A stretch of DNA of 64,000 nucleotides from Flavobacteriales bacterium (GCA_016704485.1 JADJAA010000001.1:1554824-1618823), one strand, 5' to 3'. Shown: positions 1,820-32,343, counted from the stretch's first letter. Notes: generated by a model from the letters alone, not told the origin. Made by a program: numbers and translations.

Positions 1820-3292
1820 TTAAAGCACTACTTGCTGAAGAACCCCTAACACCTCCACCATCGCAAGCGTATCCATCTTGCAATAGGCCAACAGGTCGGT
1901 CCGCAGTTGGGGTACGTTGCCGGTGTAGGTGCCGCTGGCGAGTTGCGTGAAGCGCAGACTGGCGGTGCCGCCTTCCTGCACGTTGAGGGTCTTGTAACTG
2001 AGTGTTGGCACTAAGGCAGGGAGTACCGTCTTGATGCCGTACTTGCCGTTCATTTGCGGGGCGTAGTACCAACCGTGTCTGAAGGCATCCATCAGGTCCT
2101 TGATGCGCGGTAGTAGTTGCTGGATGGCTGGTGCATGGTGTGGAAGGTCGCGCGCTAGATCGCGCAGCACCATGCGTTCGAAGGTTGCGTTGTACGCGAG
2201 GATGTCGCCCGTTGGACCAATGTCCTTGAGCAATTGCTGCACGAGTGCTTCGCGTGGATCGCTGGTGCCATCCGCTAGGAACTCATGGTGCGTTGCCGGT
2301 GCACTTGGTGCGGACTGCACATGCAAGCTGTATTGGAAGGGCATCTGCTGGAACGGACGTGTGCCGTCATAGAGCGGTATGCTCGGCATCATTGTCTCGA
2401 AATCGAAATGATGCACCGGGTATTCCAGCGCCGCCAACCACTGGTGTAGCGGTTCGTGCTGGATGTGTCCTTCGCCACTTTTCCATGCATTCACTTGCCG
2501 ACGTTGTGCAGCGCTGAGCTTTTCATTTTCCGGAATGTCCACCAGCTTCAGGATGCCCCGTTGGTACAACGACCATTTCTGTTCAGTAGCACCTGTTAGC
2601 TCGAATACCGACCGCTCCGGAATGTGCAACCAACAGTGTGGTTTGAAGTCGCACGGGTAGGGTGCATCGCATTGCGGACCAATGTCGACAACGGGTGCTT
2701 GCTCTTGTTGCACCACCTGTTTCAGCGCTTCGATGCGCGCGGGTATCGCCGCTTGCTCACGCAGTACCTCCGCAAGTACGGAGGTGCGGTTGAAGAGCTG
2801 CTGCACATCCACCGCGCCCTGTTTCACATAGCTGTTGTTCAAGTACACAATGCTGACATCCGCCAACGCGATGCTGCCCGAGATGACATAGTACTGCAAC
2901 GCAGCATCCTGCACATACACATCCTTCACGCCTGTGCTGCCTTTCACTTCAAATGCTTTCCATCCCTCGGCCGTATGCACCAGCAGGTCCAACGCGGCCA
3001 ACACACCGTCGCGCATGAACGCCGCTTCGTAGATCACCCGCTCACCGCGCGCAATGGCCGCTGCGGTATCCACCACGCTCTGCGCGAACTCGAACGGCGA
3101 AGGCGGCGCACAGTCCACTCCTCCTGGAAAAAGCTGCTGCGCCATCAACCCTACCGACGTGCCCGAATCAAAGATGGCCTGCTGCTGCGCACCGATGGGT
3201 GGCAACAGATCGCGCCGGTGCTTGTACAACCACAACGCCTTGGGACATTGCTTGCCCCGCATGTACGTGCTTTTGGAGAGTAGGTGGGACAT
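1820..3292 (-). CDS. DUF2779-like protein: PD-(D/E)XK / Cas4-like nuclease with a Cys cluster plus a C-terminal RNaseH-like exonuclease fold
   Basis: 490-aa ORF. Its N-terminus MSHLLSKSTYMRGKQCPKALWLYKHR is characteristic of DUF2779 proteins. It has the Cys cluster CDAPYPCDFKPHC and a C-terminal DEDD-like region. Confidence 0.6.
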   Translation of the reverse strand: MSHLLSKSTYMRGKQCPKALWLYKHRRDLLPPIGAQQQAIFDSGTSVGLMAQQLFPGGVDCAPPSPFEFAQSVVDTAAAIARGERVIYEAAFMRDGVLAALDLLVHTAEGWKAFEVKGSTGVKDVYVQDAALQYYVISGSIALADVSIVYLNNSYVKQGAVDVQQLFNRTSVLAEVLREQAAIPARIEALKQVVQQEQAPVVDIGPQCDAPYPCDFKPHCWLHIPERSVFELTGATEQKWSLYQRGILKLVDIPENEKLSAAQRRQVNAWKSGEGHIQHEPLHQWLAALEYPVHHFDFETMMPSIPLYDGTRPFQQMPFQYSLHVQSAPSAPATHHEFLADGTSDPREALVQQLLKDIGPTGDILAYNATFERMVLRDLARDLPHHAPAIQQLLPRIKDLMDAFRHGWYYAPQMNGKYGIKTVLPALVPTLSYKTLNVQEGGTASLRFTQLASGTYTGNVPQLRTDLLAYCKMDTLAMVEVLGVLQQVVL

Positions 3293-5739: not shown

Positions 5740-6642
5740 TCATCGTGTTCTCCGGAGCCGAGAAGGCTCTTCAGACGTTGGCTCTTCGCCCCCGCGCAGA
5801 CCGTGCGCATCGCGCTCATCCAGAGTCCATTTGGGTTTGGCGGTCTTCAATCGCTTTTCCACTTTCTTAATGTGTTCGGCAGGTGGAATGTTCTCCGGTA
5901 GTGTGCCACCAATACGACGGATGGCATCACGCACCTCCTTGCCTACTGACTCGTGTGTGCGTATTGCCTGCTGATCCCCATGCACACCTTCCCGGGCCAA
6001 TTTGTCACGGGTCTGCGTCATGCGGAATTGGTTCGCAGCGAGTTCGGTTGCGTTCATGCGGTCCAGCAATTGCTCTTTGCCAGGGATGCCCTTGCGCTGT
6101 TTGATCTGTGCGTTACCAATACCTCCGTAGAGCCCTTTGTAACCAGCATCGTGGAATACACCGAACATGCGCCCGTTCACCCCAGCCTGTTGTGCAGCAC
6201 CGCTCAATGCTTTGAATTCTTCGGCTGTTTGCTTGCGAATTTGCAGCCGTTCTTTGTCTGCGGCCAATTGGTCATTCACTTCTTGGCGTCTCGCTTGCAC
6301 AACAAAATACTGCTGCGCTAAGGCGATCTCCGGCTTGCGAGGGTCGCCGTTGATGGCGATTAGATAGCAGGCGAATCGGGAGAGGTGGAAATCGGCCAAC
6401 TGGCGCTCACTGCCCGATCCAAGAGGGACCATTTTGCCGGCGCCGGCAAAATGGTCGGTCGGCTCATTCCCTGACTCTCTACACGCATCTTGTGCCCGTT
6501 TGATGGCCTGTTCAAATCGCCGCCATTGGTCATAACCTAACAACGGTTGCAGCGCTCTGGCACTCCAGAACTCGGCACCATGTGAATTGACCTGCTTCAG
6601 TTCTTCGAAGCTGGGCGGGGTAGGGTTCGGTAACTCACTCAT
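5740..6642 (-). CDS. dinD: DNA damage-inducible protein D homolog
   Basis: 300 aa. It is collinear with E. coli DinD: FWSARALQPLLGYDQWRRFEQAIKRAQDACRESG..., LSRFACYLIAINGDPRKPEIALAQQYF, GLYGGIGNAQIKQRKG, ELAANQFRMTQT. Confidence 0.75.
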   Translation of the reverse strand: MSELPNPTPPSFEELKQVNSHGAEFWSARALQPLLGYDQWRRFEQAIKRAQDACRESGNEPTDHFAGAGKMVPLGSGSERQLADFHLSRFACYLIAINGDPRKPEIALAQQYFVVQARRQEVNDQLAADKERLQIRKQTAEEFKALSGAAQQAGVNGRMFGVFHDAGYKGLYGGIGNAQIKQRKGIPGKEQLLDRMNATELAANQFRMTQTRDKLAREGVHGDQQAIRTHESVGKEVRDAIRRIGGTLPENIPPAEHIKKVEKRLKTAKPKWTLDERDAHGLRGGEEPTSEEPSRLRRTR

Positions 6643-6849
6643 TCTGCTGACCGCTTTCTCGTCAACGCGGTTTGCACAATATACAGGCTTTGGACCAACA
6701 AATGAAGCTAACTACAATCCTCTAAAACCTTAATTCAGGAGCCGACCGCTTCGGCGTCTCCACAATCACAATGATCTCACAAATTGCCTACCTTTCATAG
6801 CGGTGTATTTGTAGATGAGGGTGGCATGGTGCAACCAAGATGAGGGAAC

Positions 6850-9003
6850 TTGAACGATCTTCGACCCGAACTAGCGCCCAATGTTACTAGCGCCCCACAA
6901 ACCCATGGATCCTGTCCTATGCGCACCTTAGAGGAAGATGCCTTGCGCTTGTTGCGGAGTTCGGTAGGGGATACCAAGGCCACCTTCAGGGAAGGTCAAC
7001 TGGAAGCCATCGTCGCCCTGGTCCGTGAGCGAAAGCGCTTGCTGGTGGTGCAATGTACCGGCTGGGGCAAGAGCAATGTGTATTTCATCAGTGCGAAGTT
7101 GCTGCGCGAAAAAGGGCATGGACCCACCGTTATCGTTAGTCCGCTATTGGCTTTGATGCGCAACCAATTGCAGGCCGCAGCGCGCATGGAGCTGAAGGCT
7201 ATCACCATCAACAGTGCCAACACGGATGAATGGGAGACGCTGCAAGAGCAGGTGGTATCCGGTGAAGCCGATGTGCTCCTGATCAGTCCGGAACGACTGG
7301 CCAACGAACGTTTTATCGCCGAGGTGCTGTTGCCCATCGCTGGACGCATCGGCATGCTCGTGGTGGACGAAGCGCATTGCATCAGCGATTGGGGGCACGA
7401 TTTCCGGCCCGACTATCGGCGCATCATCGCGATCCTGAAACAACTGCCTGCCAACCTACCGGTACTGGGTACAACCGCCACTGCCAACCAACGCGTGGTG
7501 GACGATCTGAAGGTGCAACTTGGCGACCTCACCATACAACGTGGGACCTTAGTGCGTGACAGTTTGATGCTCGATGCTGTGCAACTCCCCGACCAAGCCG
7601 CACGCCTCGCTTGGCGGACGCACTACCTGCCCCTGCTCCCCGGATCCGGTATCGTGTACACCCTTACCGTGCGCGATGCGGAGCGCGTTGCCGAATGGTT
7701 GCAACAGAACGGGATCGAAGCAAGGGCCTACCATGCCTCCGTCGTTGATACCGAAGATGGCGATCTGCGCGAGCGCTTGGAGCAGCAACTGCTCGATGGA
7801 AGCATCAAGGCCTTAGTTGCCACCACGGCACTCGGCATGGGCTACGACAAGCCCGACCTGGGTTTCGTGATCCACTTCCAAGCTCCCGGCTCCATCATCG
7901 GCTACTACCAACAAGTGGGGCGCGCCGGAAGGGCGATCGAGAAGGCCTACGGGATACTCCTACATGGCGAAGAAGATGCTGAGATCCATGCCTACTTTCA
8001 AGAGAACGCTTTCCCGAACGAGTCGAATGTGCTGCAGATACTGAAGACTTTAGAAGGTGGCAACGGTCTTTCCATCCGGCAACTGGAGCCGACCATGAAC
8101 CTGCGCTACGGGCAGTTGGAACAGGCCTTGAAATTCCTGAGCATGGAGGACCCTGCGCCGGTGGTGTTGCAGGACCATCTGTGGAAGCGCACACCGGTGG
8201 CCTACACCTTGGACCATGCGCACATCCAGCGCCTCATGGAACTACGAGAGCGCGAACGTGAGCAAGTTGTGGCCTACGTGCAACACACTGGCTGCCGCAT
8301 GGAATTCCTTCAACAGGCCTTGGATGATGTCGTGCATGCACCCTGTGGACATTGCGCCAATTGCTTGGACAAGCACTTCAAGGCGGACATGCCCCCAGCG
8401 GAAGTGGCCCGCGCGGCTACCTTTCTGCGCAGCGCGGAGATGGTACTCACCTGTCCGAAGGCACTACCCGCAGGTGGCTTGGATGCGCTCGACATTAAGG
8501 GCAACATACCGCTGGAGTTGCGCCCGCAGCCCGGAAGGATCCTCTGCCGTTGGGGCGACTCCGGTTGGGGCAAGTTGGTGGCGCAACAGAAGCACGACGG
8601 ACACTTCAAAGACGAACTCGTCCACGCCCTTGCCGAAATGGTGAACGAGCGCTGGTGTCCGGATCCGCCCCCAATGTGGGTGACCTGTGTGCCCTCCCTT
8701 CGCCATCCGGAATTGGTTCCCGATCTTGCACGCCGATTGGCCGCCAAGTTGGAACTTCCGTTCCACAACGTGGTGGAAAAGACCCGCCAGAACGAGGCGC
8801 AGAAAGCCATGCAGAACCGCTACCACCAGTGCCATAACCTCGATGGCGCCTTCGCCATCGGTACGGTGCCCGAAGGGCCTGTGCTATTGGTGGACGATGT
8901 GGTGGATTCCGGCTGGACCATTGCCATTCTTTCGGCACAACTGCTACAGGCCGGTTGTACCTTGGTGTACCCTATCGCACTAGCAAGCACCTCCCATACC
9001 TGA
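6850..9003 (+). CDS. RecQ-family SF2 DNA helicase fused to a C-terminal ComFC-like phosphoribosyltransferase (PRTase) domain
   Basis: 717 aa. RecQ motifs present are VVQCTGWGKSNVYFI (motif I), LLISPERL, LVVDEAHCISDWGHDFRPDYRR (DEAH box), and the helicase C region ...YYQQVGRAGR. The C-terminal 130 aa carry the PRTase signature VLLVDDVVDSGWTI. Stop TGA at 9001..9003 overlaps the next start (TGATG). Confidence 0.8.
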   Translation: MNDLRPELAPNVTSAPQTHGSCPMRTLEEDALRLLRSSVGDTKATFREGQLEAIVALVRERKRLLVVQCTGWGKSNVYFISAKLLREKGHGPTVIVSPLLALMRNQLQAAARMELKAITINSANTDEWETLQEQVVSGEADVLLISPERLANERFIAEVLLPIAGRIGMLVVDEAHCISDWGHDFRPDYRRIIAILKQLPANLPVLGTTATANQRVVDDLKVQLGDLTIQRGTLVRDSLMLDAVQLPDQAARLAWRTHYLPLLPGSGIVYTLTVRDAERVAEWLQQNGIEARAYHASVVDTEDGDLRERLEQQLLDGSIKALVATTALGMGYDKPDLGFVIHFQAPGSIIGYYQQVGRAGRAIEKAYGILLHGEEDAEIHAYFQENAFPNESNVLQILKTLEGGNGLSIRQLEPTMNLRYGQLEQALKFLSMEDPAPVVLQDHLWKRTPVAYTLDHAHIQRLMELREREREQVVAYVQHTGCRMEFLQQALDDVVHAPCGHCANCLDKHFKADMPPAEVARAATFLRSAEMVLTCPKALPAGGLDALDIKGNIPLELRPQPGRILCRWGDSGWGKLVAQQKHDGHFKDELVHALAEMVNERWCPDPPPMWVTCVPSLRHPELVPDLARRLAAKLELPFHNVVEKTRQNEAQKAMQNRYHQCHNLDGAFAIGTVPEGPVLLVDDVVDSGWTIAILSAQLLQAGCTLVYPIALASTSHT

Positions 9004-10223
9004 TGGACCTAAGACCGGACGACCAAGCCACCTTGCTGCTTACCGCGCACCTGCCCGGAGGCAACGCCGTGCAGCCGCTCTCCACCGGCGAATGGTCACG
9101 GTTCAGTGCGTGGTTGCTTGCACATGAGCACACACCGGGCGACCTGTTCATTGGCGATCCGAAGCACACGCTGGCCACCTTTCAGGACAAGACCATCACC
9201 CTGGAGCGTATCGCACCGTTGCTGGATCGCGGTTTCCAAGTTGCCTTGTTGCTGGAGAAGTGGCAACGTGCAGGGCTCTGGGTGATCACGCGCTCCTCGC
9301 CGGATTATCCGCAACGGCTCACCACCATGCTCGGCGACCAAGCGCCGCCCTTGTTCCATGGTGCAGGCGACCGCCGCAAGCTGGAGACCAAGGCACTTGC
9401 TGTGATCGGATCGCGCAACGCCGCCGAGGCCGATCTGCACTTCGCCCGCCAACTGGGCCACGCCGCCGCACAACAGGGCTGGTCCATCGTAAGCGGTGGT
9501 GCGCGCGGTGTGGACGAAGCCTCCATGCGCGGTGCCATCGAAGCCAGTGGTACCGTGATCGGGGTGGTGGCCGATAGCCTGCTGAAGATGGCCACCAGTC
9601 ACAAGTACCGCGATGCCATCCAACGCAGTGACATCGTCCTGCTCTGTGCCTCGCACCCCGAAGTGGGTTTCTCCGGGGCCAATGCCATGGCGCGCAACAA
9701 GTATGTGTACTGCCTAAGCCGTGCGGCCGTGGTGGTGTGCTCCGATGCCAACAAGGGAGGTACCTGGGCCGGCGCCACTGAGGACCTGAAGAAGAAGTGG
9801 GTGCCCGTGTGGGTGAAGCACCATCCCGATCCACGCAGCGGCAACCGCGCACTGGTGGATCGTGGCGCACAGCCTTTGCCCGATTCCGATCCGCATGCCT
9901 TGGACATGGAGGACCTCGCCAAGGGTAAACTCTCCAGCGCTCAACTCTTCGAACTGCCCATTGCCTCCGACGTTGCCGCCGTATACCAAGCCTCCGGAAC
10001 CACGGCCCCGAAAGAGCTCACCGAAGCGGATGAGATGGAAGCCATCCTCAAGGCACTTGCCACTCCCATGACCGTGAAGGCCCTTGCCAAACATATCGCC
10101 ATGGACGAGGCCCGCATCAGCCACCTGCTGGACCAATTGGTACACCTGCACAAAGTGGAACCACCAACTGGCCGATCACGCAGCTACGCCCTAGCGGGTC
10201 CGGATCTTTTTAGTGGGGAGTGA
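9003..10223 (+). CDS. dprA-like: DprA/Smf-family DNA-processing protein (SLOG/Rossmann-like fold + C-terminal winged helix)
   Basis: The DprA core is LAVIGSRNAAEADLHFARQLGHAAAQQGWSIVSGGARGVDEASMRGAIEASGTVIGVVADSL...NAMARNKYVYCLS. Start ATG 9003 overlaps the upstream stop, which suggests translational coupling. Confidence 0.8.
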   Translation: MDLRPDDQATLLLTAHLPGGNAVQPLSTGEWSRFSAWLLAHEHTPGDLFIGDPKHTLATFQDKTITLERIAPLLDRGFQVALLLEKWQRAGLWVITRSSPDYPQRLTTMLGDQAPPLFHGAGDRRKLETKALAVIGSRNAAEADLHFARQLGHAAAQQGWSIVSGGARGVDEASMRGAIEASGTVIGVVADSLLKMATSHKYRDAIQRSDIVLLCASHPEVGFSGANAMARNKYVYCLSRAAVVVCSDANKGGTWAGATEDLKKKWVPVWVKHHPDPRSGNRALVDRGAQPLPDSDPHALDMEDLAKGKLSSAQLFELPIASDVAAVYQASGTTAPKELTEADEMEAILKALATPMTVKALAKHIAMDEARISHLLDQLVHLHKVEPPTGRSRSYALAGPDLFSGE

Positions 10224-10663: not shown

Positions 10664-13600
10664 TCAACCCAACGTGAACTGCACGCGAGGCAATACCACT
10701 TCATAGCTCTTATCCTTCTCCTTATCGTACCAATGCACAATGTATTCTGCCGTAGCGCCTGAAACACGATATCCCTCATTTGCGAAACGGGGTAGTGTCG
10801 AGTCAATGAACTTGCGCGCGTAGAGCAGCACATTGCCGTTCCCGGTGCCAAGACCAAGTGCACTTCCGTTCGTGAATTGTTTCTCATCCGGCACCATATT
10901 GGAGCCCGCAGAAAGGGATGTGATCCGGTCGGAGTTATATGAACACGATCCCAGGTTCACCTCCTTCATACCAAGCACGTATTCAAGTTTATTGGGCCGA
11001 GGGTATACCACCTCATTCGTTTCTCTGATCAACGAGGCATGTTTGTAGGTGGGAAGGAACTGATCATTCGTGTGGATCACTAATTGGTCCATTGATCTTG
11101 TGCAGGCCACATAGAGTAGGCGGAGGTCTTTGTCCTCCTCCATCGGGTAGTTCTTCTGGTATACGAACACGTTATTGAACTCCTTGCCCTTGCTCTTGTG
11201 CATGGTAGATACATGCACCACTCCTTTCTGTGGTTTCACGGCGTCGCTGATCCTGATCTCACGCACGAAAGCATCCCATTCTGATAGGTCATGTCGCCCT
11301 TGGTTCCCTTTCTTGAAGAGCGCAAGTAGGTCTTTCATGTCCGCCCGCAATGGATTCCCCTTGAGCCCTTCTATATATTCCTTAACGGCATTGTCCCAGA
11401 CCTCCTTGGGAATAACACCAATTCCTGGATGGCGTTCACGAACGAATTGGCCGAACGCTCGGACCTCGCGCAAGCGACCTACGGGGAAGTCATCCGAGCC
11501 ACCGATGTAGCGCGCCTTGACGCCATGTTGCTCCAGCATGGCCGTTGCCATGATCGCCTCATTGTTCGTGCGGGTCAATACACTTGTCGTGCCGGTGAGC
11601 GTCGACCGTGCGACGTCCTTTACCAGTCCTGTCAAATGATAGCCGCCGGAATATCGGACCACACGTTGCACTCCCGGCCGATCGTCATTTGCTACAAGTT
11701 CCTCACCATCTTTTATCCGGACTTTGATCTTGGAGGCAATATGATTCGTCAATCGAACGATCGTCTCCTTGCTCCGGTAATTCACAAGTAGGCTATGCGA
11801 TCGCGCCTTGAAGCGGGTTCGGAATTCCGACATGAATCTTGGCGATGCACCGCGCCATTCATAGATGTTCTGGTCGTCATCACCCACTGCGATGATGCGT
11901 GGTTTCTCTGCGGTCTCAGCAAGCATCTGGATCAGTTGCCATTGCTCCTGATCAACATCTTGGAATTCATCCAATACGATCACGCTTTTGTTCGCAATGG
12001 AGGTGACATCCACTTCGCCGGCATGGATAGCCGCCATGGTGCGGCTGATCACAGTTTCCGACCGGTCCAGATCGCCGAGCTGACCCATCAGTTCAAAACA
12101 CAAGCCATGGAATGTCGTGATCCGGATAAGGCCTCGATACTCCGGAACCATGGCATGGACGCGGTCGCGGAACTCCATTGCCGCAGCCTTCGAGAACGTG
12201 AGCATAAGGAATTGCTCAGGCTTCACATCCTCAATGAGCAGAAGGCTCGCCACCTTATGGACAAGGACCCGGGTCTTACCGCTCCCCGGACCCGCAGCAA
12301 CAAGGATCTGGTCCGTACTATCATTGACCACTCCCAATTGCTTCGTATCCAGATCCCCGAAAAGCTCAGTGAATCTGCTTCGGGTGATAGGCCGTGTGAT
12401 ATCGGTGCTGCGCTTCGGAAAGTATTTCTGCACGAAGACATCGTGCTCGAAGCGGAAATAGTCATCTACGAAAGATAACGCGGCCTGAACGCTTTCCATA
12501 CGGCGTGCTGCATACTCTCCCACCATATGGATCTGTTCCACCCTGTTCTGGTAATGATGCCTCAGGTTACCGTAATCCTCTTGGGTGTATTGCTTCCGTA
12601 CGTTCTGCTCCACGCGCTCCACATTCATCCGTTGGTACATGACCATGAACCCGTCCTGCAGGCTCAGTACATTCATGCCGTGTAGGAACAGCAATGCATC
12701 GGCAATGGCTTTCAGGTCATGCTCTTTGCCGAACATCCCTTCGGCCATTGCCGCTCTCAGCCCCAACAAGGAGAATTTCACACGCAATTCCTGCTTGGCA
12801 TCGTCAGCGAGCTTCGACGTATCGGGTACTAGTTTCTCAAGTTGTTCGAAACAAGCCAAGGCAAGTGCTTGGCGCGCTTCCACCTCCTTCCGTAGTTCTT
12901 CCGGGTCCTTCAATAGTGTTATCCTGTAGCTATCTGCTTGCCGGTCCAGGCGCTTGATCCCTACCAGTCTTCGTTTCTTCCAGATCAGGAACAGTGGCTT
13001 CAGATCCTCTATCCTGCTGTCCACCCCCTGGTCAAGAATGCCTTGGTTCAGCGCGCGATAGGTCACGGTCATTTCCTGTTCGGCCAGGAGCCCTACCAAT
13101 GCCTTTTCGGTATTCAGGATGCGTTGCAACCGTGCTTTGGAACCCGCACGTGGTCGACCATCCACATAGGCGGTCAGGTCCTGCTCATCGTTCAAGACCG
13201 CGATGTTCCGCAACAGTTGTACGGTCTCGATCACATCACGCAACTTCATTCCGAGATGACCCGCGACCACATCGACTTGCGATACACCCACTCCATCCTC
13301 ATCCGGTTTCACTAGTCGCTGCAATACCCGTATGCAATTCTCCTTCTGTTTTTCTGTTAATCCGGTATTGTCCCGTACTATCCGTAAGGCATCCTCCAGT
13401 CCTTTGACCATTAGACCGGTAGCGAAAACCTGCGGGGAGTTCAGCGTGCGCTTTATGTAGCCTCGGTCCTCTAGGGCTGCAAGGGATGCGGCCACGCGGT
13501 TCTGGATATCACGCATCTCTTCATCCCATCCCGCGGCTTTGGCAAGCTCCGAAGCCGAACGACTGATCTTGTCCCGGATCTTGGTCATGCCTTTTACCGC

Positions 13601-15496
13601 ACGCCATACCTGCTGTATCTCCTTTTGATTGAGCTTGGTCCGTTGAAGCAAGTGGAAATGGCCGCCCAGGTCATTCTCATTGTATAGGATGTAGCACTTG
13701 GCATCAATGTCTTTGTTGCGGCCAGCGCGACCGGCTTCCTGTACGTAGCTCTCCAGCGAACTGGAGATGTTGTAGTGGATGACGGATCGCACATCCTCCT
13801 TGTCCACACCCATACCGAAAGCCGAGGTTGCCACCATGACATCCACCTCACCATCCATGAAGCTCTCCTGATTGAGCTGCTTCTCTTCGCGCTCCATCTT
13901 GCCATGAAATCCGCGGACCGATATCCCGATCGCCTTGATGCGATCTACAAGCTCATCAACGCGTTTGGTCCGGCTTGCATACACGATCGCGGGTTTCTCA
14001 CAGGTGTTCAGCAGGCCCAATAACACACGTTGACGGGCTTCGGCAGTGGTGTCCTCCACAGGAAGGACCTCGTACTCCAGGTTCTCCCGCCGCGCTTGGC
14101 TTATATAGGGAATAAGGTCCAGACCAAGGCCATTCTTGAAATAGTTCCGGATGTCTTCCACCACTTGCGGCTTGGCGGTGGCAGTAAAACAGGATACGGG
14201 TATGGGCTTCTCGCGCCCAAGGTCGATCTGAAGCTGTTTCAGATAGGGCGCGATGTACAAGTAGTCCACCCTGAAATCATGCCCCCAACTGGAAAAGCAA
14301 TGGGCCTCATCTATAACGAACCGCGAGATCTGTCTCTTCTGCAGCAGACGGGAAAGCGTGGGAGAACGAAGCGTTTCCGGAGCGATATACAACAGGTGGA
14401 TCCCGCCATCCTCTACTTGCTTCAGGACTTCTTGCCGCTCCAATGGGGAAAGTAGTCCGCTCAGATGGGCCGCACGCACTATCTGGTGCCGATGTTCCAG
14501 CACCTCCACCTGATCTTTCATCAGCGAAACCAACGGCGAGATGACCACGGTGAGCGAACGGGTAAGCGCACCTTCCATTAGAGCAGGCAGCTGGAACGTG
14601 AGCGACTTGCCTCCGCCAGTGGGGAAGACGGTCAGGACCGACTCTCCGGCCAACGCTGAACCGACGGCCTTTTCCTGCACTCCAGCCTGGCTTTCACCGT
14701 CGAACAATCGGAAGTGATCATACCCGAAATACTCCTTCAGTCCGCGCTTTGCATCCATCCAGGTCGCACAGTACTCGCAGCCCGCATCATTACACTGTGC
14801 GAACCGCAGGTTATGCAGTACCTGTTGGGTAAAAGGCAAGCTATGTACGACCCAAGGGGGTAGGATGGATGCTTCATCGGTCGTGTCGATCAGGGCCAGC
14901 GCATGCGCGAGCTCTACAGGTCTATCAGTAGTAAAGCGTTGCAGCGGAGCAGAAGCGCAAATGAGGCCTGAGTAACGCGAGGTGATCAAGTCGGCTACGT
15001 CTGTCTTGTCCTGCTCATGTGCCGCAAGCTCGATCATGCCATCGTACCCTTCCTGTCCGGAAAGCAAACCGGCATAGACCGAACGCATGACAACAGGCAA
15101 ACAATTGAATGTACCTAAAAGTTCTTCCAATAGTTCGCGACACAGTTTTGCGTCACTGAGCGGATCGTTGTCGCCGTCCTCGTTGCGGATCTTGTAGCCC
15201 TTCACCAACTTGTGATAGGGCTTATTGGCGTACAGCAATGCACTCCAACACAAAGTATCCAAGAGCACCTTACCCTTTAATACATTCTGCCCCATGTGCT
15301 TCCGAAGCACAGGCGCATCATGGCCAACAAGGTTGTGCCCGGCGACAATGGTTGCCCTGTCTATCAGCTTCTTAAGTCCATCCAGCTTACGCTTGTGGAA
15401 TTCGCTGCTCCCGAGCACAGCTCCTACGTCCAGGAGTTTTTTACTCCGCTGATCTAACTCGAGATCCAGAATGAGGACCTTGTCCAGTGCGTTCAT
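10664..15496 (-). CDS. 1610-aa multidomain protein: N-terminal DEDD (DnaQ-like) 3'-5' exonuclease + RecQ (SF2) helicase + C-terminal UvrD/PcrA (SF1) helicase
   Basis: Exonuclease motifs: ILDLELD and VAGHNLVGHDAPVL. RecQ motifs: FGYDHFRLFDGESQ, VFPTGGGKSLTFQLPAL, VIDEAHCFSSWGHDFRVDY, and helicase C ending YVQEAGRAGR. UvrD motifs: VAAGPGSGKTRVL (I), LTFSKAAAMEFRDRV (Ia), LDEFQDVD (II), GDDDQNIYEWRGA (III), VNYRS (IV), VSTMHKSKGKEFNNVF (V), LLYVACTRSMDQLVI (VI). Confidence 0.8.
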   Translation of the reverse strand: MNALDKVLILDLELDQRSKKLLDVGAVLGSSEFHKRKLDGLKKLIDRATIVAGHNLVGHDAPVLRKHMGQNVLKGKVLLDTLCWSALLYANKPYHKLVKGYKIRNEDGDNDPLSDAKLCRELLEELLGTFNCLPVVMRSVYAGLLSGQEGYDGMIELAAHEQDKTDVADLITSRYSGLICASAPLQRFTTDRPVELAHALALIDTTDEASILPPWVVHSLPFTQQVLHNLRFAQCNDAGCEYCATWMDAKRGLKEYFGYDHFRLFDGESQAGVQEKAVGSALAGESVLTVFPTGGGKSLTFQLPALMEGALTRSLTVVISPLVSLMKDQVEVLEHRHQIVRAAHLSGLLSPLERQEVLKQVEDGGIHLLYIAPETLRSPTLSRLLQKRQISRFVIDEAHCFSSWGHDFRVDYLYIAPYLKQLQIDLGREKPIPVSCFTATAKPQVVEDIRNYFKNGLGLDLIPYISQARRENLEYEVLPVEDTTAEARQRVLLGLLNTCEKPAIVYASRTKRVDELVDRIKAIGISVRGFHGKMEREEKQLNQESFMDGEVDVMVATSAFGMGVDKEDVRSVIHYNISSSLESYVQEAGRAGRNKDIDAKCYILYNENDLGGHFHLLQRTKLNQKEIQQVWRAVKGMTKIRDKISRSASELAKAAGWDEEMRDIQNRVAASLAALEDRGYIKRTLNSPQVFATGLMVKGLEDALRIVRDNTGLTEKQKENCIRVLQRLVKPDEDGVGVSQVDVVAGHLGMKLRDVIETVQLLRNIAVLNDEQDLTAYVDGRPRAGSKARLQRILNTEKALVGLLAEQEMTVTYRALNQGILDQGVDSRIEDLKPLFLIWKKRRLVGIKRLDRQADSYRITLLKDPEELRKEVEARQALALACFEQLEKLVPDTSKLADDAKQELRVKFSLLGLRAAMAEGMFGKEHDLKAIADALLFLHGMNVLSLQDGFMVMYQRMNVERVEQNVRKQYTQEDYGNLRHHYQNRVEQIHMVGEYAARRMESVQAALSFVDDYFRFEHDVFVQKYFPKRSTDITRPITRSRFTELFGDLDTKQLGVVNDSTDQILVAAGPGSGKTRVLVHKVASLLLIEDVKPEQFLMLTFSKAAAMEFRDRVHAMVPEYRGLIRITTFHGLCFELMGQLGDLDRSETVISRTMAAIHAGEVDVTSIANKSVIVLDEFQDVDQEQWQLIQMLAETAEKPRIIAVGDDDQNIYEWRGASPRFMSEFRTRFKARSHSLLVNYRSKETIVRLTNHIASKIKVRIKDGEELVANDDRPGVQRVVRYSGGYHLTGLVKDVARSTLTGTTSVLTRTNNEAIMATAMLEQHGVKARYIGGSDDFPVGRLREVRAFGQFVRERHPGIGVIPKEVWDNAVKEYIEGLKGNPLRADMKDLLALFKKGNQGRHDLSEWDAFVREIRISDAVKPQKGVVHVSTMHKSKGKEFNNVFVYQKNYPMEEDKDLRLLYVACTRSMDQLVIHTNDQFLPTYKHASLIRETNEVVYPRPNKLEYVLGMKEVNLGSCSYNSDRITSLSAGSNMVPDEKQFTNGSALGLGTGNGNVLLYARKFIDSTLPRFANEGYRVSGATAEYIVHWYDKEKDKSYEVVLPRVQFTLG

Positions 15497-17620: not shown

Positions 17621-20600
17621 TCAAGCACTGCGCTCACCCGGCTGTGCGTTCCCTTGCACCCACTCCACTACCGAGATGATCTTATCCTGATCATTCTCAT
17701 TCGGGAATAGGCCGAAGATCCCTTCTTGGTGTAGGTCCGTGAACGTTGAACCCGGCTCTGCGAGCATGCGTTTGTCGATCACGCCGTTCACCGTGAGGTG
17801 CCGAATGATGGAATCGATGAAGTGGATCTGCGTAGCACTGAAGATGGAGCCGGACAAGAATTCGCCGAAGGCTGCTTTTGCTGCGCCTTCATCAAGGCCG
17901 ATGATGCTGCGAATGAAATAGCCTAGTGGCCGTTCCTCGCCAAGTTCCTTCATCAAAGCCTCCTTCGTGCCGCGTTCGTCTCCATCGAACAGGATGCGTT
18001 CCAGTTCCACTAGCTCAGCGGTCGTGATCGGCTCATTGGTGTATAGTTTGTGAATGGTAAGCTGGTGTTTGTGCGAGCGGATGAACTCCTCTACACGCAT
18101 CCGATAGCTACGCATGGTGTAGCTACCTGGCATGGAGATGATATCCTCACCCTCGCTCACCAACTCATCTCTCAGGTCCGAGTATACCACTTTGCGTTCC
18201 TCGCGCGGTATCAAGCGCACTAGATCGCGCAATTGTTTTCGTGTGAATTCCAAGGCTTCCAGACCGAACACAGCGGCTCGTTGTTGTTGATCATTTGCGA
18301 CATCAAGAACTGCTTTGATCGCTGGATACCGCTCCTGCACTACGGGAATGTTGGAGAGCCGGGCAAGCTGTGTGGCGGTTGAGGCCAACGTGCGGAACAG
18401 GCGATCTACTGACGGCGCCTCTTGGGCCACAGCAATTTCCAGATCGAGCATAAGTAGGTCAAATCGTTTGGCCAGCTCGTCCTTGTCCGGTAGTTCGATC
18501 AAGTGACCAACGGTCTCGAACAGATCACTGATCCCGCTTTTTGATAACGCATTCCATGCGGTACGTTCACGGTAGTGATCGAGCACACGTTGCGCAGGAC
18601 GAATGCGCACGGTGTGCCGCAATTCCCAAAGTGCCTGGACCCAACTATGCGCACTATTCAAAAGCTCAACGCGTAGTGCTTGATCTTTTGGTACCTGATG
18701 GGCTGGTTCACGCAGTTGTTCACTAAGTAGGATAGTTGCTTCAAAGATCCGTTGCGATAGGCTGGGGGAGCGCACAGGTTCAATGCCTTCCGGCCGCAGG
18801 TTGAAGAAGCTGTAGTTGCCACAGAGATCGAAGATCCTGAAGTTCTCCTTGTGCTGGCCGGGACCGAACAGATCCGGGCATAAGCGTGTGCCGCGGCCAA
18901 CCATTTGCCAGAACTTGGACTTGCTATAGACCGGTTTAAAGAACACCAAGTTCACGATCTCAGGAATATCAATACCCGTATCCAACATATCCACACTCAC
19001 GGCGATCTGTGGATACCGGTCCTTATCACTGAAATTATCTATGATGCTCTGGGAGTATTGCTCCTTACTGTGTACCACCGACATGAAATGCCCACCGTAC
19101 TGCGGGAACTGATCTTCAAAACGGTTCTGTATGGCCCGGGCATGGTCTATGTTCCTTGCAAAGACAACGGTCTTGCCCAGCTTCTCACCACCTTCCACTT
19201 TGATCCCGTTCTCCATCACATAGGCCAACACCTGATCGATGGTGTTCGAGTTGAAGAGCCAGTTATTGATCGCGGGCGCTCCGATCTCTTCGGGTATATT
19301 CCCTTGGTCGTCCCGGAAGGTCTCTTCGTAATGTGTCCTATCGCTCTCACTCAGGTCATCGTAGCGGATACCGCGTTGCAGAAAGCCGAAGTCCACTGCT
19401 TTGCCAATGGGCGGCACCAGAAAACGATCGGCTACGGCCTGCCCTAATTCATAGAACGATGTCGGGTTATGCTCTTCGCAATCGAACAAGGCATAGGTAT
19501 CCCGATCCCCTTGGTCGTGTGGTGTTGCAGTAAGGCCGACCAACAAGGAATCGAAATAGGTGAAAATAGCACCGTACCGATCGTACACTGAGCGATGCGC
19601 CTCATCCACAATGATCAGATCGAAGTGACCGACACCGAAGGTCTTCACATCATCACTCCGCACTTGGTCCACGCGGTTCATTACCGTGGGGTAGGTGCTG
19701 AAGACCACCCGTGCGCTTTCATCATAGCGCTGTTTGGTGAGATCCAATGTGGTAACATTCGGCAGGTTCTTCTCAAAGGCCCGTTTTGCCTGTGTGACCA
19801 AGGCATTGCGATCAGCGAGAAAGAGCACACGCTTCGCCCAATTCGCTTTCAGTAGAAGGTCCACTAACGCGGCAACGGTACGCGTCTTGCCAGCCCCAGT
19901 GGCCATTACGATCAATGCTTTTCGCTTAAGACCGCGCATGCCATCTTCATCCACCCAACTTTCTGCAACCCGCTTGATCGCTTGATGTTGGTAATAGCGT
20001 TCCACGATCTGCTCATCGATCGGCACATGCCGAATGTTCACACGACCGATACGCCGATCAACGACCCGTTGCAATTCGTCCCGCGTGTAAATGCCCTGTA
20101 CAGCGCGTGGACCATAAAAGGTGTCATCCCAGATCCACGTATCGAAACCGTTGCTATAGAATATCACCGGGCGCTGTCCGGTCATGCGTTCCAGGCAATC
20201 AGCGTAAAGGCTTGCTTGCACACGGCCTTGTTGGGCATCGTGGGTGGTGCGCTTGGCCTCTACTACGGCCAGCGGTTTACCATCTGCACCCCAGAGCACG
20301 TAATCTACCTTGCCGTTGCCGTTGGGATTGGTGCTCAATGGCATCCCTGTTACCGGGTATTCGATCACGTTGGATGCGGCAGGGTCCCAGCCTGCTTCGC
20401 GCAACAGTTCATCAATGAAGAGTAACCGTGTATCCGCCTCCGAATATTCAGAAGCAGGTATGGGTATGTTCTCATGGCGCTCCTTGCGCTCCTGGATCGC
20501 TGCCAGGCGTTCTGCCAATATCTGCTTTTCTCCTTCTAATTTCAACCGTTGCTCGCGCTCGGTCTCCATCGCTACACGTTGCGCTTCATAACGCTCCTGT

Positions 20601-21079
20601 AACTGTTGAAGCTCCGCGCTGTTCGGAACTTCCTTCACTTTCACTTGTACTATGAGTGCCTCCTCTTGGAATGTTCCTACCTCGATGTCGAATGCGCTGT
20701 ACGTACGACCCATCCATTTCAAGAACCGGAACAAGAGGCGCAATGAGGCTACGCTCTGGCTCTCCACCACCTTCTTATCATGCGCAGCGGCATTGCCGGT
20801 ACGCCGGATGTACTGCAGGTCGATGTAGATGGGTGGTGGTATCAGTACCCGGAAGGACCGTTCATCCATCAACGCGCTCAACTGGCTGTTGTAAGGGCGC
20901 TGTAGGTCACTGTCGTTATCATACAGCCAGTGCACGGTACGTTCCAACGCACGGCGGGCATACACGGCAGAGGCGATCGGTGCGGCCAAGGCATACCGCT
21001 CCGCGTCCATGGCCTCCTTCGCAATGGAGGGCCACTCTTCAACGAGGAAGCGGAAGTTGCTCGGGGTGCTCAACGACAT
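17621..21079 (-). CDS. hsdR: Type I restriction enzyme R subunit (EcoEI/COG4096-like, with EcoEI_R_C C-terminal domain)
   Basis: 1152 aa. The N-terminus is SNFRFLVEEWPSIAKEA. The PD-(D/E)XK nuclease motif is GKVDYVLWGADGKPLAVVEAKRT. The SF2 helicase motifs are VMATGAGKTRT and LIIVDEAHRS. A long C-terminal helical domain is present. Confidence 0.8.
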   Translation of the reverse strand: MSLSTPSNFRFLVEEWPSIAKEAMDAERYALAAPIASAVYARRALERTVHWLYDNDSDLQRPYNSQLSALMDERSFRVLIPPPIYIDLQYIRRTGNAAAHDKKVVESQSVASLRLLFRFLKWMGRTYSAFDIEVGTFQEEALIVQVKVKEVPNSAELQQLQERYEAQRVAMETEREQRLKLEGEKQILAERLAAIQERKERHENIPIPASEYSEADTRLLFIDELLREAGWDPAASNVIEYPVTGMPLSTNPNGNGKVDYVLWGADGKPLAVVEAKRTTHDAQQGRVQASLYADCLERMTGQRPVIFYSNGFDTWIWDDTFYGPRAVQGIYTRDELQRVVDRRIGRVNIRHVPIDEQIVERYYQHQAIKRVAESWVDEDGMRGLKRKALIVMATGAGKTRTVAALVDLLLKANWAKRVLFLADRNALVTQAKRAFEKNLPNVTTLDLTKQRYDESARVVFSTYPTVMNRVDQVRSDDVKTFGVGHFDLIIVDEAHRSVYDRYGAIFTYFDSLLVGLTATPHDQGDRDTYALFDCEEHNPTSFYELGQAVADRFLVPPIGKAVDFGFLQRGIRYDDLSESDRTHYEETFRDDQGNIPEEIGAPAINNWLFNSNTIDQVLAYVMENGIKVEGGEKLGKTVVFARNIDHARAIQNRFEDQFPQYGGHFMSVVHSKEQYSQSIIDNFSDKDRYPQIAVSVDMLDTGIDIPEIVNLVFFKPVYSKSKFWQMVGRGTRLCPDLFGPGQHKENFRIFDLCGNYSFFNLRPEGIEPVRSPSLSQRIFEATILLSEQLREPAHQVPKDQALRVELLNSAHSWVQALWELRHTVRIRPAQRVLDHYRERTAWNALSKSGISDLFETVGHLIELPDKDELAKRFDLLMLDLEIAVAQEAPSVDRLFRTLASTATQLARLSNIPVVQERYPAIKAVLDVANDQQQRAAVFGLEALEFTRKQLRDLVRLIPREERKVVYSDLRDELVSEGEDIISMPGSYTMRSYRMRVEEFIRSHKHQLTIHKLYTNEPITTAELVELERILFDGDERGTKEALMKELGEERPLGYFIRSIIGLDEGAAKAAFGEFLSGSIFSATQIHFIDSIIRHLTVNGVIDKRMLAEPGSTFTDLHQEGIFGLFPNENDQDKIISVVEWVQGNAQPGERSA

Positions 21080-21301: not shown

Positions 21302-22063
21302 TTGCGATCGCCATTTTTGGTCGTAGGGCTATGCACGGCGCAACAAGATGGACCAACCGAGGAGGAGCAGCCAACAATTATCACGGCGGAACAACTGCAG
21401 GACTTTAATTCGGTAGTGCCCGGCATGGGTCGACAGATCCCGGGAATATACTTGTCCAACTACGGGCTTCTGTGTTACCACTTTGGGGATGATGGCACAT
21501 TCGCATCGCGCGACTTGAATGATTCCGGTTGGGTCGCAGCCGGTTCATGGTATGCGCCCATCACGTTGCCAAAGGAACAATTGGACACTGCGCAAGCCCT
21601 GTGGGTGCGGTACCATCTTCTCTGCGACAGTTCCCTGCGCGGTAGCCCATTGACACTAAGTTTGGGATCCATTGCCGGTATTGAGATCTTTTTGAACGGC
21701 CATCGGTTGGTGCACGTCCGGGAATTGCCGCCGGTTGTTCATGATCTTGATCAACCAATTTGGGACACGCTGCGGCGCTTTACCCTACCGATCACATTCG
21801 CGTGCCAAGGCGAACCAGAAGTGCTCGCTATTCGGATAGATCCGGCAAGGAATGGAATTCCCTACCCCACTTTGCACTATACGAACTTCGCCTACAACGT
21901 ACAGCTGTCCGCGATGCACTATGGTGTCTTCATCGGGGTCAACGCCATCATCTTTTGCTCGCCTTGGTCCTCTGGTCTTTGGACCGGAATGATAAGCAGT
22001 GGTGGCTACTGGCCCTGCTGGCCTTCGTTACAGGATCAGGGTATGCGCCAAGTTGACCAGTGA
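21302..22063 (+). CDS. 7TMR-DISM extracellular (DISMED2-like) sensor domain; probably the N-terminal part of a single frameshifted gene with 21999..23375
   Basis: 253-aa ORF ending in a first TM-like segment HYGVFIGVNAIIF. The downstream ORF, in another frame, supplies 6 further TM helices. That gives 7 in total, as in 7TMR-DISM receptors. Confidence 0.5.
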   Translation: MRSPFLVVGLCTAQQDGPTEEEQPTIITAEQLQDFNSVVPGMGRQIPGIYLSNYGLLCYHFGDDGTFASRDLNDSGWVAAGSWYAPITLPKEQLDTAQALWVRYHLLCDSSLRGSPLTLSLGSIAGIEIFLNGHRLVHVRELPPVVHDLDQPIWDTLRRFTLPITFACQGEPEVLAIRIDPARNGIPYPTLHYTNFAYNVQLSAMHYGVFIGVNAIIFCSPWSSGLWTGMISSGGYWPCWPSLQDQGMRQVDQ

Positions 22064-23375
22064 GATGGGCTTGTTGGGTTTGCCGTGGCCCACCATCCAG
22101 GTCATTGGCATTATTGACAAGATCCTCCTTCTATGGCCTATGTATGTGCTTATCATGGTCTTGTGGCGCATGCTAGGTGGGTTATCAAGTCGGCGCGCCT
22201 TTTGGCTCACCTTCGGTGTCTTGTTCGTTTCGGCAACCAGCGCTGGCCGCTTGTACTTTTTCGGGAAGATCTCCTGGTCATTTTCGGAGATCACGGGGGA
22301 ATACAGCATAGATGCAGGTTTGTCCGATGATCAGTGGCCACTTTTGGTCGCACTGGTGGTTGGTGCGGTACTGCGCTATTCCATAGCGCTCTGGTTCGCG
22401 ATCGAATTGATCCGACTTGGCATTCGCCTGGTGCGTAAGAAGGGTTTCGGACGTTGGATCGGGGCAGGGGCGCTTGTGTCCAGTCTGTTGAGTTTCCTCT
22501 TGACGTGCTTCGGCCTGGTCACTGAAATACCATCTACGACATGGCTCACACTTTCCGATTATCTCGCCTATGTTGCTGTGCCGGTTTCAGTCGTCATTTA
22601 TCTGGCCGTCACTGCCGCTCAAAACAACAAGCTGGTAGCGCGTCAACGGGATGATCTTGATCGCGAGGTGGACGACCGTACCGCCGAACTTGTAGCGGAG
22701 AAACAAGCGGTGTTGCGCGAGAAAGAACGCAGCGATGAACTACTCCTCAACATCCTGCCATCCGAAGTGGCGGAAGAACTAAAAGCCAACGGTTCGGCAA
22801 AGGCGCGGGACTTCGATCCCGCCACCATCCTGTTCACCGACTTCAAAGGCTTCACGGAGCTATCCGTGCAATTAAGTGCTCAGGATCTGGTGGCCGAGAT
22901 CAATACGTGTTTCGAGGCGTTCGATGGGATAATTTCCCGGTACGGTGTGGAGAAGATCAAGACCATTGGCGATGCTTACATGGCGGCAGGTGGCGTGCCT
23001 GATCCTCTGCGCGGATCACCGGCAGGTGTTGTAGAGGCCGCGTTGGAGATGCAGGAATTCATGGTCAGGTACAAAGCGCAACGAACAGCCTTGAACAAAC
23101 CGGCCTTCGAGATGCGTCTCGGTGTTCACACCGGCCCAGTGGTGGCGGGCATCGTGGGTGTGAAGAAGTTCCAGTACGATATCTGGGGCGACACCGTGAA
23201 CACGGCCAGCCGCATGGAGAGCAATAGCGAAGTGGGCCAAGTAAACATCTCGCAGAGCACCTATGAACTGGTGAAGAACGTGCCGGGACTTGCCTTCACA
23301 TCGCGAGGCAAAATACCAGTGAAAGGGAAAGGAGAGCTGGAAATGTACTTCGTAAAGAGAGGGCCGGTCGCATAG
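21999..23375 (+). CDS. 7TMR-DISM_7TM membrane domain + class III adenylate/guanylate cyclase catalytic domain
   Basis: There are six hydrophobic helices, followed by a coiled-coil and the cyclase core FTDFKGFTELS...KTIGDAYMAAGG...GVHTGPVVAGIVG...WGDTVNTASRMES. Confidence 0.75.
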   Translation: MVATGPAGLRYRIRVCAKLTSEMGLLGLPWPTIQVIGIIDKILLLWPMYVLIMVLWRMLGGLSSRRAFWLTFGVLFVSATSAGRLYFFGKISWSFSEITGEYSIDAGLSDDQWPLLVALVVGAVLRYSIALWFAIELIRLGIRLVRKKGFGRWIGAGALVSSLLSFLLTCFGLVTEIPSTTWLTLSDYLAYVAVPVSVVIYLAVTAAQNNKLVARQRDDLDREVDDRTAELVAEKQAVLREKERSDELLLNILPSEVAEELKANGSAKARDFDPATILFTDFKGFTELSVQLSAQDLVAEINTCFEAFDGIISRYGVEKIKTIGDAYMAAGGVPDPLRGSPAGVVEAALEMQEFMVRYKAQRTALNKPAFEMRLGVHTGPVVAGIVGVKKFQYDIWGDTVNTASRMESNSEVGQVNISQSTYELVKNVPGLAFTSRGKIPVKGKGELEMYFVKRGPVA

Positions 23376-24274: not shown

Positions 24275-24302
24275 TATGTCCGTGCTGCGTGATCCTCTTC
24301 CG

Positions 24303-32234: not shown

Positions 32235-32343
32235 TGGTCCTCGCCACCAAGGGTCTATATGGTTGGATAATCGCTCAACCAACGAACTTCCCTATGGCAA
32301 CGGACCAAAAGTCCCGGTCACCTGTGCAGTCTATCTGCACAGT

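Follow-up and report, generated by a model that had tools for sequence, protein, structure and literature searches.

A PsyrTA (RqlHI) gene pair in a Flavobacteriales defence island

Why does a gene for a RecQ-like helicase with a fused phosphoribosyltransferase (PRTase) domain run directly into a gene for a DprA-like protein, and does the couple serve competence, DNA repair or immunity? The question is raised by positions 6,850 to 10,223 of a 64,000-nucleotide stretch of a Flavobacteriales bacterium genome (GCA_016704485.1 JADJAA010000001.1:1554824-1618823), which we term the window. The original prediction, made from the sequence alone, read the couple as a possibly new, repurposed competence module for single-stranded DNA (ssDNA), located in a defence island and divergent from an SOS-type dinD gene. 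Here, the two genes are assigned to psyrT (rqlH) and psyrA (rqlI); both products are full-length members of the PsyrT and PsyrA families, and no sequence feature contradicts this membership. We are confident that they form an ordinary PsyrTA (RqlHI) toxin–antitoxin and abortive-infection module within a Flavobacteriales defence island. PsyrTA/RqlHI has been described since 2013–2015 (Sberro et al, 2013; Russell & Mulvey, 2015, PMC4670107; Millman et al, 2022, bioRxiv 10.1101/2022.05.11.491447; further literature in Rousset et al, PMC9122126), and the copy analysed here is already known as a system, without structural departure. An immunity-context pair with a probably paralogous DprA-like member stands. 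Its novelty does not, given a named system and an analogy already in print, and its link to dinD and SOS is unsupported.

Domain architecture of PsyrT and PsyrA

Both proteins match their PADLOC-DB profiles end to end. The helicase-PRTase aligns to the PsyrT profile with an E-value of 4.7e-287 (951.9 bits; residues 3-693 against positions 3-686 of 689) and the DprA-like protein to the PsyrA profile with 9.1e-125 (414.9 bits; residues 1-387 against positions 1-387 of 398). The PADLOC run suggested with the original prediction therefore gives the pair its name, and with it the idea of a new module falls (bioRxiv 10.1101/2022.05.11.491447; PMC4670107). Lesser PADLOC matches of the pair comprise DpdF-type helicases and ShosA.

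Mechanically called open reading frames (ORFs) span 6850..9003 and 8955..10223, both on the plus strand, and their TTG starts were both discarded. For psyrT, the TTG at 6850 was dropped for the ATG at 6919 because the homologue N-termini align there, all starting at the equivalent M..I..AL.LLR, because the PADLOC profile sets in at residue 3, and because the nearest public record calls a product of 694 residues. For psyrA, the TTG at 8955 was replaced by the ATG at 9003, which yields a protein of 406 residues.

The predicted combination of a RecQ-type helicase with a fused PRTase domain is borne out by Pfam, NCBIfam and the full-length PsyrT match. In the helicase core, Pfam recognizes DEAD (E 2.6e-22, residues 25-196) and Helicase_C (E 5e-14, residues 242-339), and PsyrT passes the NCBIfam recQ_fam model TIGR00614 with 242.9 bits against a cut-off of 219.8. 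It does not reach the RecQ equivalog TIGR01389 (273.2 bits versus 640), and Pfam finds neither HRDC nor RQC in PsyrT. Sequence matches of the core in the PDB are the cores of RecQ, BLM, and RECQ1. We aligned seven PsyrT sequences, namely the window copy, plasmid copies from E. coli, Nostoc, and Acinetobacter, and three Flavobacteriales metagenome-assembled genomes. The Walker A motif TGWGKS (K51), VDEAHCISDWGHDFRPD (D150-H153), and the Arg-finger motif QQVGRAGR are invariant in this alignment, as are the zinc cysteines C459, C476, C479, and C482. Mutants have defined the role of the Walker A, DEAH, and phosphoribosyl pyrophosphate (PRPP)-loop (DIVD) residues in RqlH (PMC4670107). All residues needed there, the Walker A lysine, the DEAH aspartate, and the PRPP-loop aspartates, are intact in PsyrT as K51, D150, and D659/D660/D663.

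The PRTase domain is the less conspicuous half of the toxin. VLLVDDVVDSGWTI, on which the original prediction based a ComFC-type PRTase, is found in the translation of ORF 6850..9003. Taken alone, the window PsyrT scores below the Pfam gathering threshold for Pribosyltran (19.3-21.6 bits versus 26.3). Nevertheless, all seven PsyrT family members match PF00156 (best E 7.6e-11), and a precomputed PF00156 match is attached to many of the family's fragments in databases. Within the PRPP-binding loop, which reads DDxxDSGWT, residues D659, D660, D663, S664, W666, and T667 are invariant in the alignment. A PDB sequence search with the domain profile gave only weak PRT matches (E about 0.01), and a structure model was therefore used. 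The AlphaFold2 (AF2) model of residues 497-694, built from 50 sequences, has a mean predicted local distance difference test (pLDDT) score of 94.9. Its top Foldseek match in the PDB is H. pylori ComF (7p0h, E 8.4e-4), and the remaining 49 listed matches have the PRT fold as well, among them PRPP synthetase, APRT, HGXPRT, PurF, OPRT, and ShosT (8zvd). The matches of all seven relatives together with the PRT-fold model secure the assignment despite the sub-threshold score of the window copy, and a failure on profile search, named beforehand as the weak spot of the PRTase claim, did not occur. According to the model, the PsyrT C-terminus has a ComF-like PRT fold. The label “ComFC-type” is apt for this fold but not for family membership. 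The only two NCBIfam PRTase matches of PsyrT are GntX (E 9.7e-5; 21.9 bits against a cut-off of 304) and comF TIGR00201 (E 4.9e-4), whose cut-off of 233.55 bits is far from reached with 20.1 bits.

PsyrA matches DNA_processg_A (E 6.8e-36) and SLOG cluster 4 in Pfam. Its AF2 model (pLDDT 86.5) adopts a three-domain DprA fold, for which the best fold matches are R. palustris DprA (3maj), ShosA (8zva), and S. pneumoniae DprA (3uqz). By NCBI criteria, PsyrA is not a canonical DprA, as it stays below both equivalog cut-offs (TIGR00732, 88.9 bits versus 191.15; NF008007, 53.6 versus 495); it is probably a paralogue, as had been supposed. E. coli strains with rqlI carry a canonical dprA in addition (PMC4670107). 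Synteny around psyrA is not conserved, the neighbours being variable defence genes. In PDB sequence searches with PsyrT and PsyrA, the closest solved structures were RecQ-type helicase cores or DprA/ShosA.

Gene coupling, conservation and the divergent DinD-like neighbour

The helicase stop codon and the DprA-like start codon overlap as TGATG, just as first noted, and share a single base at 9003. In relatives, psyrT and psyrA are spaced by a 4-nt overlap or a 2-6 nt gap. Scanning GTDB species genomes with the PsyrA profile yielded 80 loci from Proteobacteria, Cyanobacteria, Bacteroidota, Chloroflexota, Verrucomicrobia, Spirochaetes, Latescibacterota, and others, 71 of which extend at least 2.3 kb upstream. 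A PRTase domain ends just upstream of PsyrA on the same strand in 68 of these 71 loci, and a RecQ-like core lies directly upstream, again on the same strand, in 66 of 71. The suspected co-occurrence of RecQ-PRTase fusions with a DprA-like gene is thus conserved and tightly coupled.

A few loci depart from this arrangement. L045 and L068 retain a PRTase piece of ~65 residues as a toxin remnant beside an intact PsyrA, and L026, L054, and L079 encode PsyrA without a detectable PsyrT upstream. In E. coli NZ_CP124405.1 (L027/H27), an IS3-family insertion splits the toxin gene next to an intact PsyrA, and PGAP names the C-terminal piece 'ComF family protein'.

The window stems from a Flavobacteriales metagenome-assembled genome. 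Its PsyrA is 100% identical to a GenBank protein, and the locus is 99.7% identical to its nearest public record (GCA_016718615.1, contig JADKDA010000001.1). The 14 nucleotide differences between the two psyrTA copies cause one amino-acid change (V35G in PsyrT), which is consistent with purifying selection on psyrTA. Flavobacteriales relatives keep the pair (PsyrT 62-72% identity, PsyrA 66-80%) with different neighbours: hsdM or an unrelated 179-aa ORF upstream, and hsdR, GmrSD, or a CD-NTase/TIR-STING (CBASS-type) pair downstream. Plasmid copies lie within a type I restriction–modification (R-M) operon (E. coli IncF), within a BREX-1 operon (Acinetobacter), and beside ParAB (Nostoc). PsyrT is 54.9% identical over 99% of its length to the toxin of an E. 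coli RecQ-family/DprA pair, and one E. coli allele occurs in 53 of 5426 complete genomes.

A gene for a DUF2779 protein of 490-492 residues with a weak Cas4-like match is located a few kb upstream of psyrTA in the window (1820-3292, minus strand) and in two Flavobacteriales relatives (L005, 3797-5275; L006, 143-1621). The genes in between differ; those of the relatives include RES-Xre and HicAB toxin–antitoxin pairs. The DUF2779 gene possibly delimits a common integration hotspot on one side.

On the other side of the divergent intergenic region, the DinD identity proposed for the neighbouring gene is upheld, since its product passes the NCBIfam DinD equivalog NF008573 with 364.5 bits against a cut-off of 242. 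The protein also matches the PADLOC candidate defence family PDC-S13 (E 3.8e-110). Its residues 12-273 align to the first 277 of 717 positions of one PADLOC type I specificity (S)-subunit model (E 1.3e-77), and this match to the N-terminal part indicates that DinD-like domains are fused to some type I S subunits. With both matches, the DinD-like gene looks by sequence like another gene of the defence island. No DinD homologue occurs within about 7 kb of the pair in any of the 80 PsyrA loci from other genomes, and none was called next to it in the Flavobacteriales relatives and three plasmids examined. These results rule out DinD as a conserved partner of PsyrTA, and the adjacency of dinD and psyrTA is peculiar to this genome. 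Moreover, since the psyrT start was moved to the ATG at 6919, the gap between the two genes measures 276 bp (6643-6918) instead of the 208 bp first reported.

The intergenic region was also proposed to be searched for a LexA box. We screened 6643-6918 for LexA-type sites with ten patterns from the literature, tolerating one mismatch in the four main motifs. CTGT-N8-ACAG (E. coli-type), GAAC-N4-GTTC (Gram-positive-type), and CTAA-N5-TTAG are absent from this region even with one mismatch, and five other published patterns have no exact match in it. The sole match is GGA-N5-TCC at 6907-6917, the SOS motif of Flavobacteriaceae (PMC8565304). It was dismissed as SOS evidence: it specifies only six bases, with a chance expectation of 0.12 matches, and adjoins the psyrT start rather than dinD. 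The region thus holds no convincing SOS box, and together with the absence of DinD from the 80 loci this leaves the SOS and functional link drawn from the neighbour without support. Promoter searches of the same 276 bp gave one sigma-70-like match (6691-6718), no more than shuffled sequences give, and no Bacteroidota TAnnTTTG element. Further, 10 bp (ACTAGCGCCC) are exactly repeated in direct orientation at 6870-6879 and 6886-6895, with a 16-bp period and 24-49 bp ahead of the psyrT start codon. The window has no other copy of them, and related loci lack the repeat upstream of psyrT. An operator function is conceivable, as is an origin by chance or by an indel.

Proposed function and competing explanations

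Functional analyses of homologues define the framework for PsyrTA. In E. coli F11, RqlH without its partner triggers the SOS response, filamentation, and a loss of viability, a toxicity for which both the PRTase domain and the DIVD loop that binds PRPP are required. RqlI, which combines DprA homology with a C-terminal helix-turn-helix (HTH), binds RqlH and suppresses its toxicity. The two genes form an operon, and across 240 genera rqlH is always found upstream of rqlI, usually close by or overlapping (all PMC4670107). Further, PsyrTA is among the two-gene toxin–antitoxin systems reported to be involved in phage resistance, with a DprA-like antitoxin and a toxin carrying a PRTase domain (bioRxiv 10.1101/2022.05.11.491447). 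The role in immunity that was envisaged for the pair is therefore a published one.

Following these homologues, PsyrT would act as a RecQ-like 3'-5' DNA helicase whose ComF-like PRTase domain is the toxic effector. PsyrA, composed of a helical N-domain, a Rossmann ssDNA-binding domain, and a winged helix, would be produced from the same transcript via the overlapping stop and start codons and keep PsyrT harmless. The subsequent steps may be modelled on ShosTA. ShosT binds PRPP, which is needed for toxicity, ShosA binds ssDNA and RecA, and the toxin becomes free upon host shut-off or through phage ssDNA (PMC11961720; PMC12961424). By analogy, infection would disturb PsyrA, either by titration of the DprA-like protein by phage ssDNA or replication intermediates, or, alternatively, by shut-off of host expression and decay of the antitoxin. 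The freed, helicase-tethered PRTase might then consume PRPP or modify a nucleotide or DNA substrate, and the resulting DNA damage and growth arrest could abort the infection.

Four points weigh against this picture. Deletion of the native PsyrTA in E. coli NILS69 and its expression in K-12 revealed no protection that could be detected with the phages tried (bioRxiv 10.1101/2024.12.20.629700). RqlH is found without RqlI in many Gram-positive bacteria (PMC4670107), so that a toxin role of the helicase-PRTase is not necessarily universal. The role assigned to PsyrTA in this organism would be transferred from experiments on homologues, and the downstream steps rely on the ShosTA analogy.

Some of these points would equally fit a module for DNA repair or genome maintenance, in which the helicase-PRTase handles DNA that is damaged or stalled, with RecA loaded or modulated by the DprA-like partner, and toxicity is a by-product of imbalance. 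RqlH belongs to a bona fide helicase clade and is present without RqlI in many genomes (PMC4670107), ShosA works via RecA and recombination (PMC11961720; PMC12961424), a DinD-like gene adjoins the pair, and the native-host assay gave no phage phenotype. We nevertheless consider this explanation unlikely. The locus is set among R-M, GmrSD-like, Septu, and other defence genes, homologous pairs are embedded in type I R-M and BREX operons on plasmids, close relatives have different neighbours, a pattern typical of a mobile defence hotspot, and a part in phage resistance is reported for PsyrTA.

The DinD-like gene, which shares the divergent 276-bp region with psyrT, might in this lineage have been recruited as a RecA-directed third component or damage-responsive regulator, with the two ACTAGCGCCC copies as an operator, for example for the winged helix of PsyrA. 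Such a recruitment, by which a PRTase toxin–antitoxin system would be coupled straight to the sensing of RecA filaments, is a very long shot. Slightly fainter still is the prospect of a three-part SOS-wired unit with the divergent DinD-like gene as functional partner or co-regulated sensor of PsyrTA. In its favour, E. coli DinD modulates RecA filaments. The divergent arrangement around a shared 276-bp region and the GGA-N5-TCC match (PMC8565304) also speak for it. It is opposed by the absence of DinD from all 80 related loci, by hsdM or an unrelated ORF in its place in the close Flavobacteriales relatives, by the shortness and chance expectation of the one SOS-like match without any other LexA-type box, and by the standing of the DinD family itself as a defence-island candidate in PADLOC. 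A competence-type module for uptake or processing of ssDNA, like ComFA with ComFC and DprA, or the organism's sole housekeeping DprA, has hardly any probability left. ComF is the best solved-structure match of the PRTase domain, GntX and comF are its only NCBIfam PRTase matches, and PsyrA has the full DprA fold. However, the comF score and both dprA scores fall far below their cut-offs, the helicase is RecQ-like and not ComFA-like, the neighbours are variable defence genes with no competence gene nearby, and canonical dprA is present in E. coli strains with rqlI as well (PMC4670107).

For the PsyrTA toxin–antitoxin module that we favour, the discovery value is small, as this is a catalogued system that PADLOC-type tools call automatically. 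Its value lies in an annotation correction, since public records list a 'RecQ family helicase' and a 'DNA-processing protein DprA', a misleading hint at repair or competence. Moreover, the locus adds one more Bacteroidota example to the PsyrTA family and marks a defence island of ~35-40 kb with several uncharacterised neighbours.

The surrounding island and comparison with known systems

The proposed defence-island setting is confirmed by PADLOC and Pfam, which place type I R-M, GmrSD-like, Septu, and PDC families around the pair (Table 1).

Table 1. Features of psyrTA and of the surrounding window (nucleotide positions counted from the first letter of the window)
Feature	Position	Strand	Basis
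DinD-like Bro-N protein (PADLOC candidate defence family PDC-S13), neighbour outside the system	5740..6642	-	NCBIfam DinD, Pfam Bro-N
Divergent intergenic region, 276 bp	6643..6918	.	Sequence
psyrT (rqlH), 694-aa RecQ-like superfamily 2 (SF2) helicase with C-terminal PRTase, probable toxin/effector gene	6919..9003	+	PADLOC PsyrT, TIGR00614, homologue N-termini
Helicase core, residues 22-356; Walker A TGWGKS nt 7057-7074, DEAH box nt 7366-7377	6982..7986	+	Pfam DEAD, Helicase_C
RecQ zinc-binding subdomain, residues 445-483	8251..8367	+	Pfam RecQ_Zn_bind E 4.9e-5, 24.4 bits (cut-off 25)
ComF-like PRTase domain, residues 497-694; PRPP-binding loop VLLVDDVVDSGWT nt 8881-8919	8407..9000	+	Pfam family matches, AF2 model
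TGATG stop/start overlap psyrT–psyrA; TGA 9001-9003, ATG from 9003, one shared base	9001..9005	+	Read from sequence
psyrA (rqlI), 406-aa DprA-like protein, probable antitoxin	9003..10223	+	PADLOC PsyrA, Pfam DNA_processg_A, AF2 model
PsyrA helical N-domain, residues 1-90 (predicted)	9003-9272	+	AF2 model
PsyrA Rossmann/DprA domain, residues 91-300 (predicted)	9273-9902	+	AF2 model
PsyrA disordered linker, residues 315-337 (predicted)	9945-10013	+	AF2 model
PsyrA winged-helix C-domain, residues 341-397 (predicted)	10023-10193	+	AF2 model
Double helicase, 1610 aa, RecQ-like and UvrD-like, convergent with psyrA	10664-15496	-	Profile matches
GmrSD_N/HEC-05 protein	Island		Family profiles
HsdR, type I R-M	17621-21079	-	Family profiles
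Class III nucleotide cyclase, PycC-like, between hsdR and hsdS	21999-23375	+	Guanylate_cyc E 7e-56; weak PycC 1.2e-15
HsdS, type I R-M	24303-25448	-	Family profiles
HsdM, type I R-M	25445-27004	-	Family profiles
N6-methyltransferase and HATPase_c protein, 898 aa, upstream of radical-SAM gene	28213-30909		Family profiles
Radical-SAM/B12-binding protein, PDC-M51A full length (E 6.6e-117), beside WYL/WCX regulator	30972-33354	-	PADLOC
Septu PtuB/HNH	35458-36426	-	E 1.2e-68
Septu PtuA	36435-38822	-	E 1.6e-157
DDE transposase (DDE_Tnp_1_6 / DUF772), beyond the island	50712-52367	-	Family match

The 1610-aa ORF joins a RecQ-like SF2 core (residues ~250-650; recQ_fam 283.8 bits versus 219.8; DpdF-like in PADLOC) to a UvrD/GajB-like superfamily 1 helicase (residues ~1045-1480). 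Its stretches 1-245, 650-1040, and 1480-1610 have no family match, including Pfam run on the unassigned parts; by eye only, the N-terminus (LILDLE...GHNLVGHDAPVL) has the look of a DEDD exonuclease. The gene is intact in the window and split into three calls in GCA_016718615.1 by three 1-bp indels and a 100-bp deletion.

Between hsdR and hsdS, the cyclase gene is accompanied by a 253-aa ORF without family match (21302-22063) and a 324-aa ORF with a marginal UDG match only (23477-24451, E 0.14). The cyclase insert in the type I R-M locus may be Pycsar-like, with no recognisable effector present. A 423-aa ORF, which like the 898-aa gene is upstream of the radical-SAM gene, has only a weak Rho RNA-binding/S1-like match. 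When Pfam was also run on three other ORFs, two of them had marginal matches only, far under the respective cut-offs. The Septu stretch, at 34-42 kb, has a G+C content of 44-48% against ~53%, which suggests separate acquisition; it is followed by genes for an amidohydrolase-domain protein, a papain-like peptidase, and an SH3 and CHAP protein. The transposase gene lies near a two-component system (45494-46961) and proteins with type IX secretion system tails. Scans of the whole window for tRNAs and Rfam families found none.

Compared with canonical RecQ, PsyrT shares the SF2 core, the zinc-binding subdomain, the passed recQ_fam cut-off, and the PDB matches to RecQ and BLM cores. It differs in missing the RecQ equivalog and in lacking HRDC and RQC matches, in place of which it carries the PRTase domain.

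The pair unites the same three activities as ComFA, ComFC, and DprA, namely a helicase, a ComF-type PRTase fold (7p0h), and a DprA fold (3maj, 3uqz). This analogy to ComF, DprA, and natural transformation was already discussed by Russell & Mulvey (PMC4670107) and repeated in the setting of conflict systems by Iyer et al (2017, PMC5512222). In contrast to the competence proteins, however, the helicase is of the RecQ family and not ComFA, comF and dprA scores remain far below their cut-offs, and no competence gene context is present. The published role of PsyrTA is that of a toxin–antitoxin and defence system in which toxicity resides in the PRTase domain and the DprA-like protein serves as antitoxin, and the notion of a cooperative ssDNA-handling machine is not sustained.

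ShosTA (PDB 8zva, 8zvd, 9vzo) likewise pairs a DprA-like antitoxin with a PRTase-domain toxin whose toxicity requires PRPP binding (PMC11961720; PMC12961424). The fold of ShosT (8zvd) is matched by the PsyrT C-domain, and PsyrA matches the ShosA structure as well as, in part, the ShosA profile (residues 82-258, E 6.5e-23), far more weakly than the PsyrA profile. ShosT, however, has no helicase, its PRTase being fused to a pyrophosphatase-type domain, whereas PsyrT has one. ShosA is reported to neutralise ShosT without binding, in contrast to RqlI, which binds RqlH, and PsyrA has an additional C-terminal winged helix. With a helicase in the toxin and only a partial ShosA match, the pair was not assigned to ShosTA.

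PsyrTA/RqlHI agrees with the pair in its two-gene order and tight coupling, in the build of the toxin from a RecQ-like core, a zinc subdomain, and a C-terminal PRTase with the DDxxDSGWT loop, and in an antitoxin that combines DprA homology with a C-terminal HTH. The differences here are confined to the host, which is an uncultured Flavobacteriales bacterium, and to the neighbouring genes, among them the DinD-like gene upstream; none is structural.

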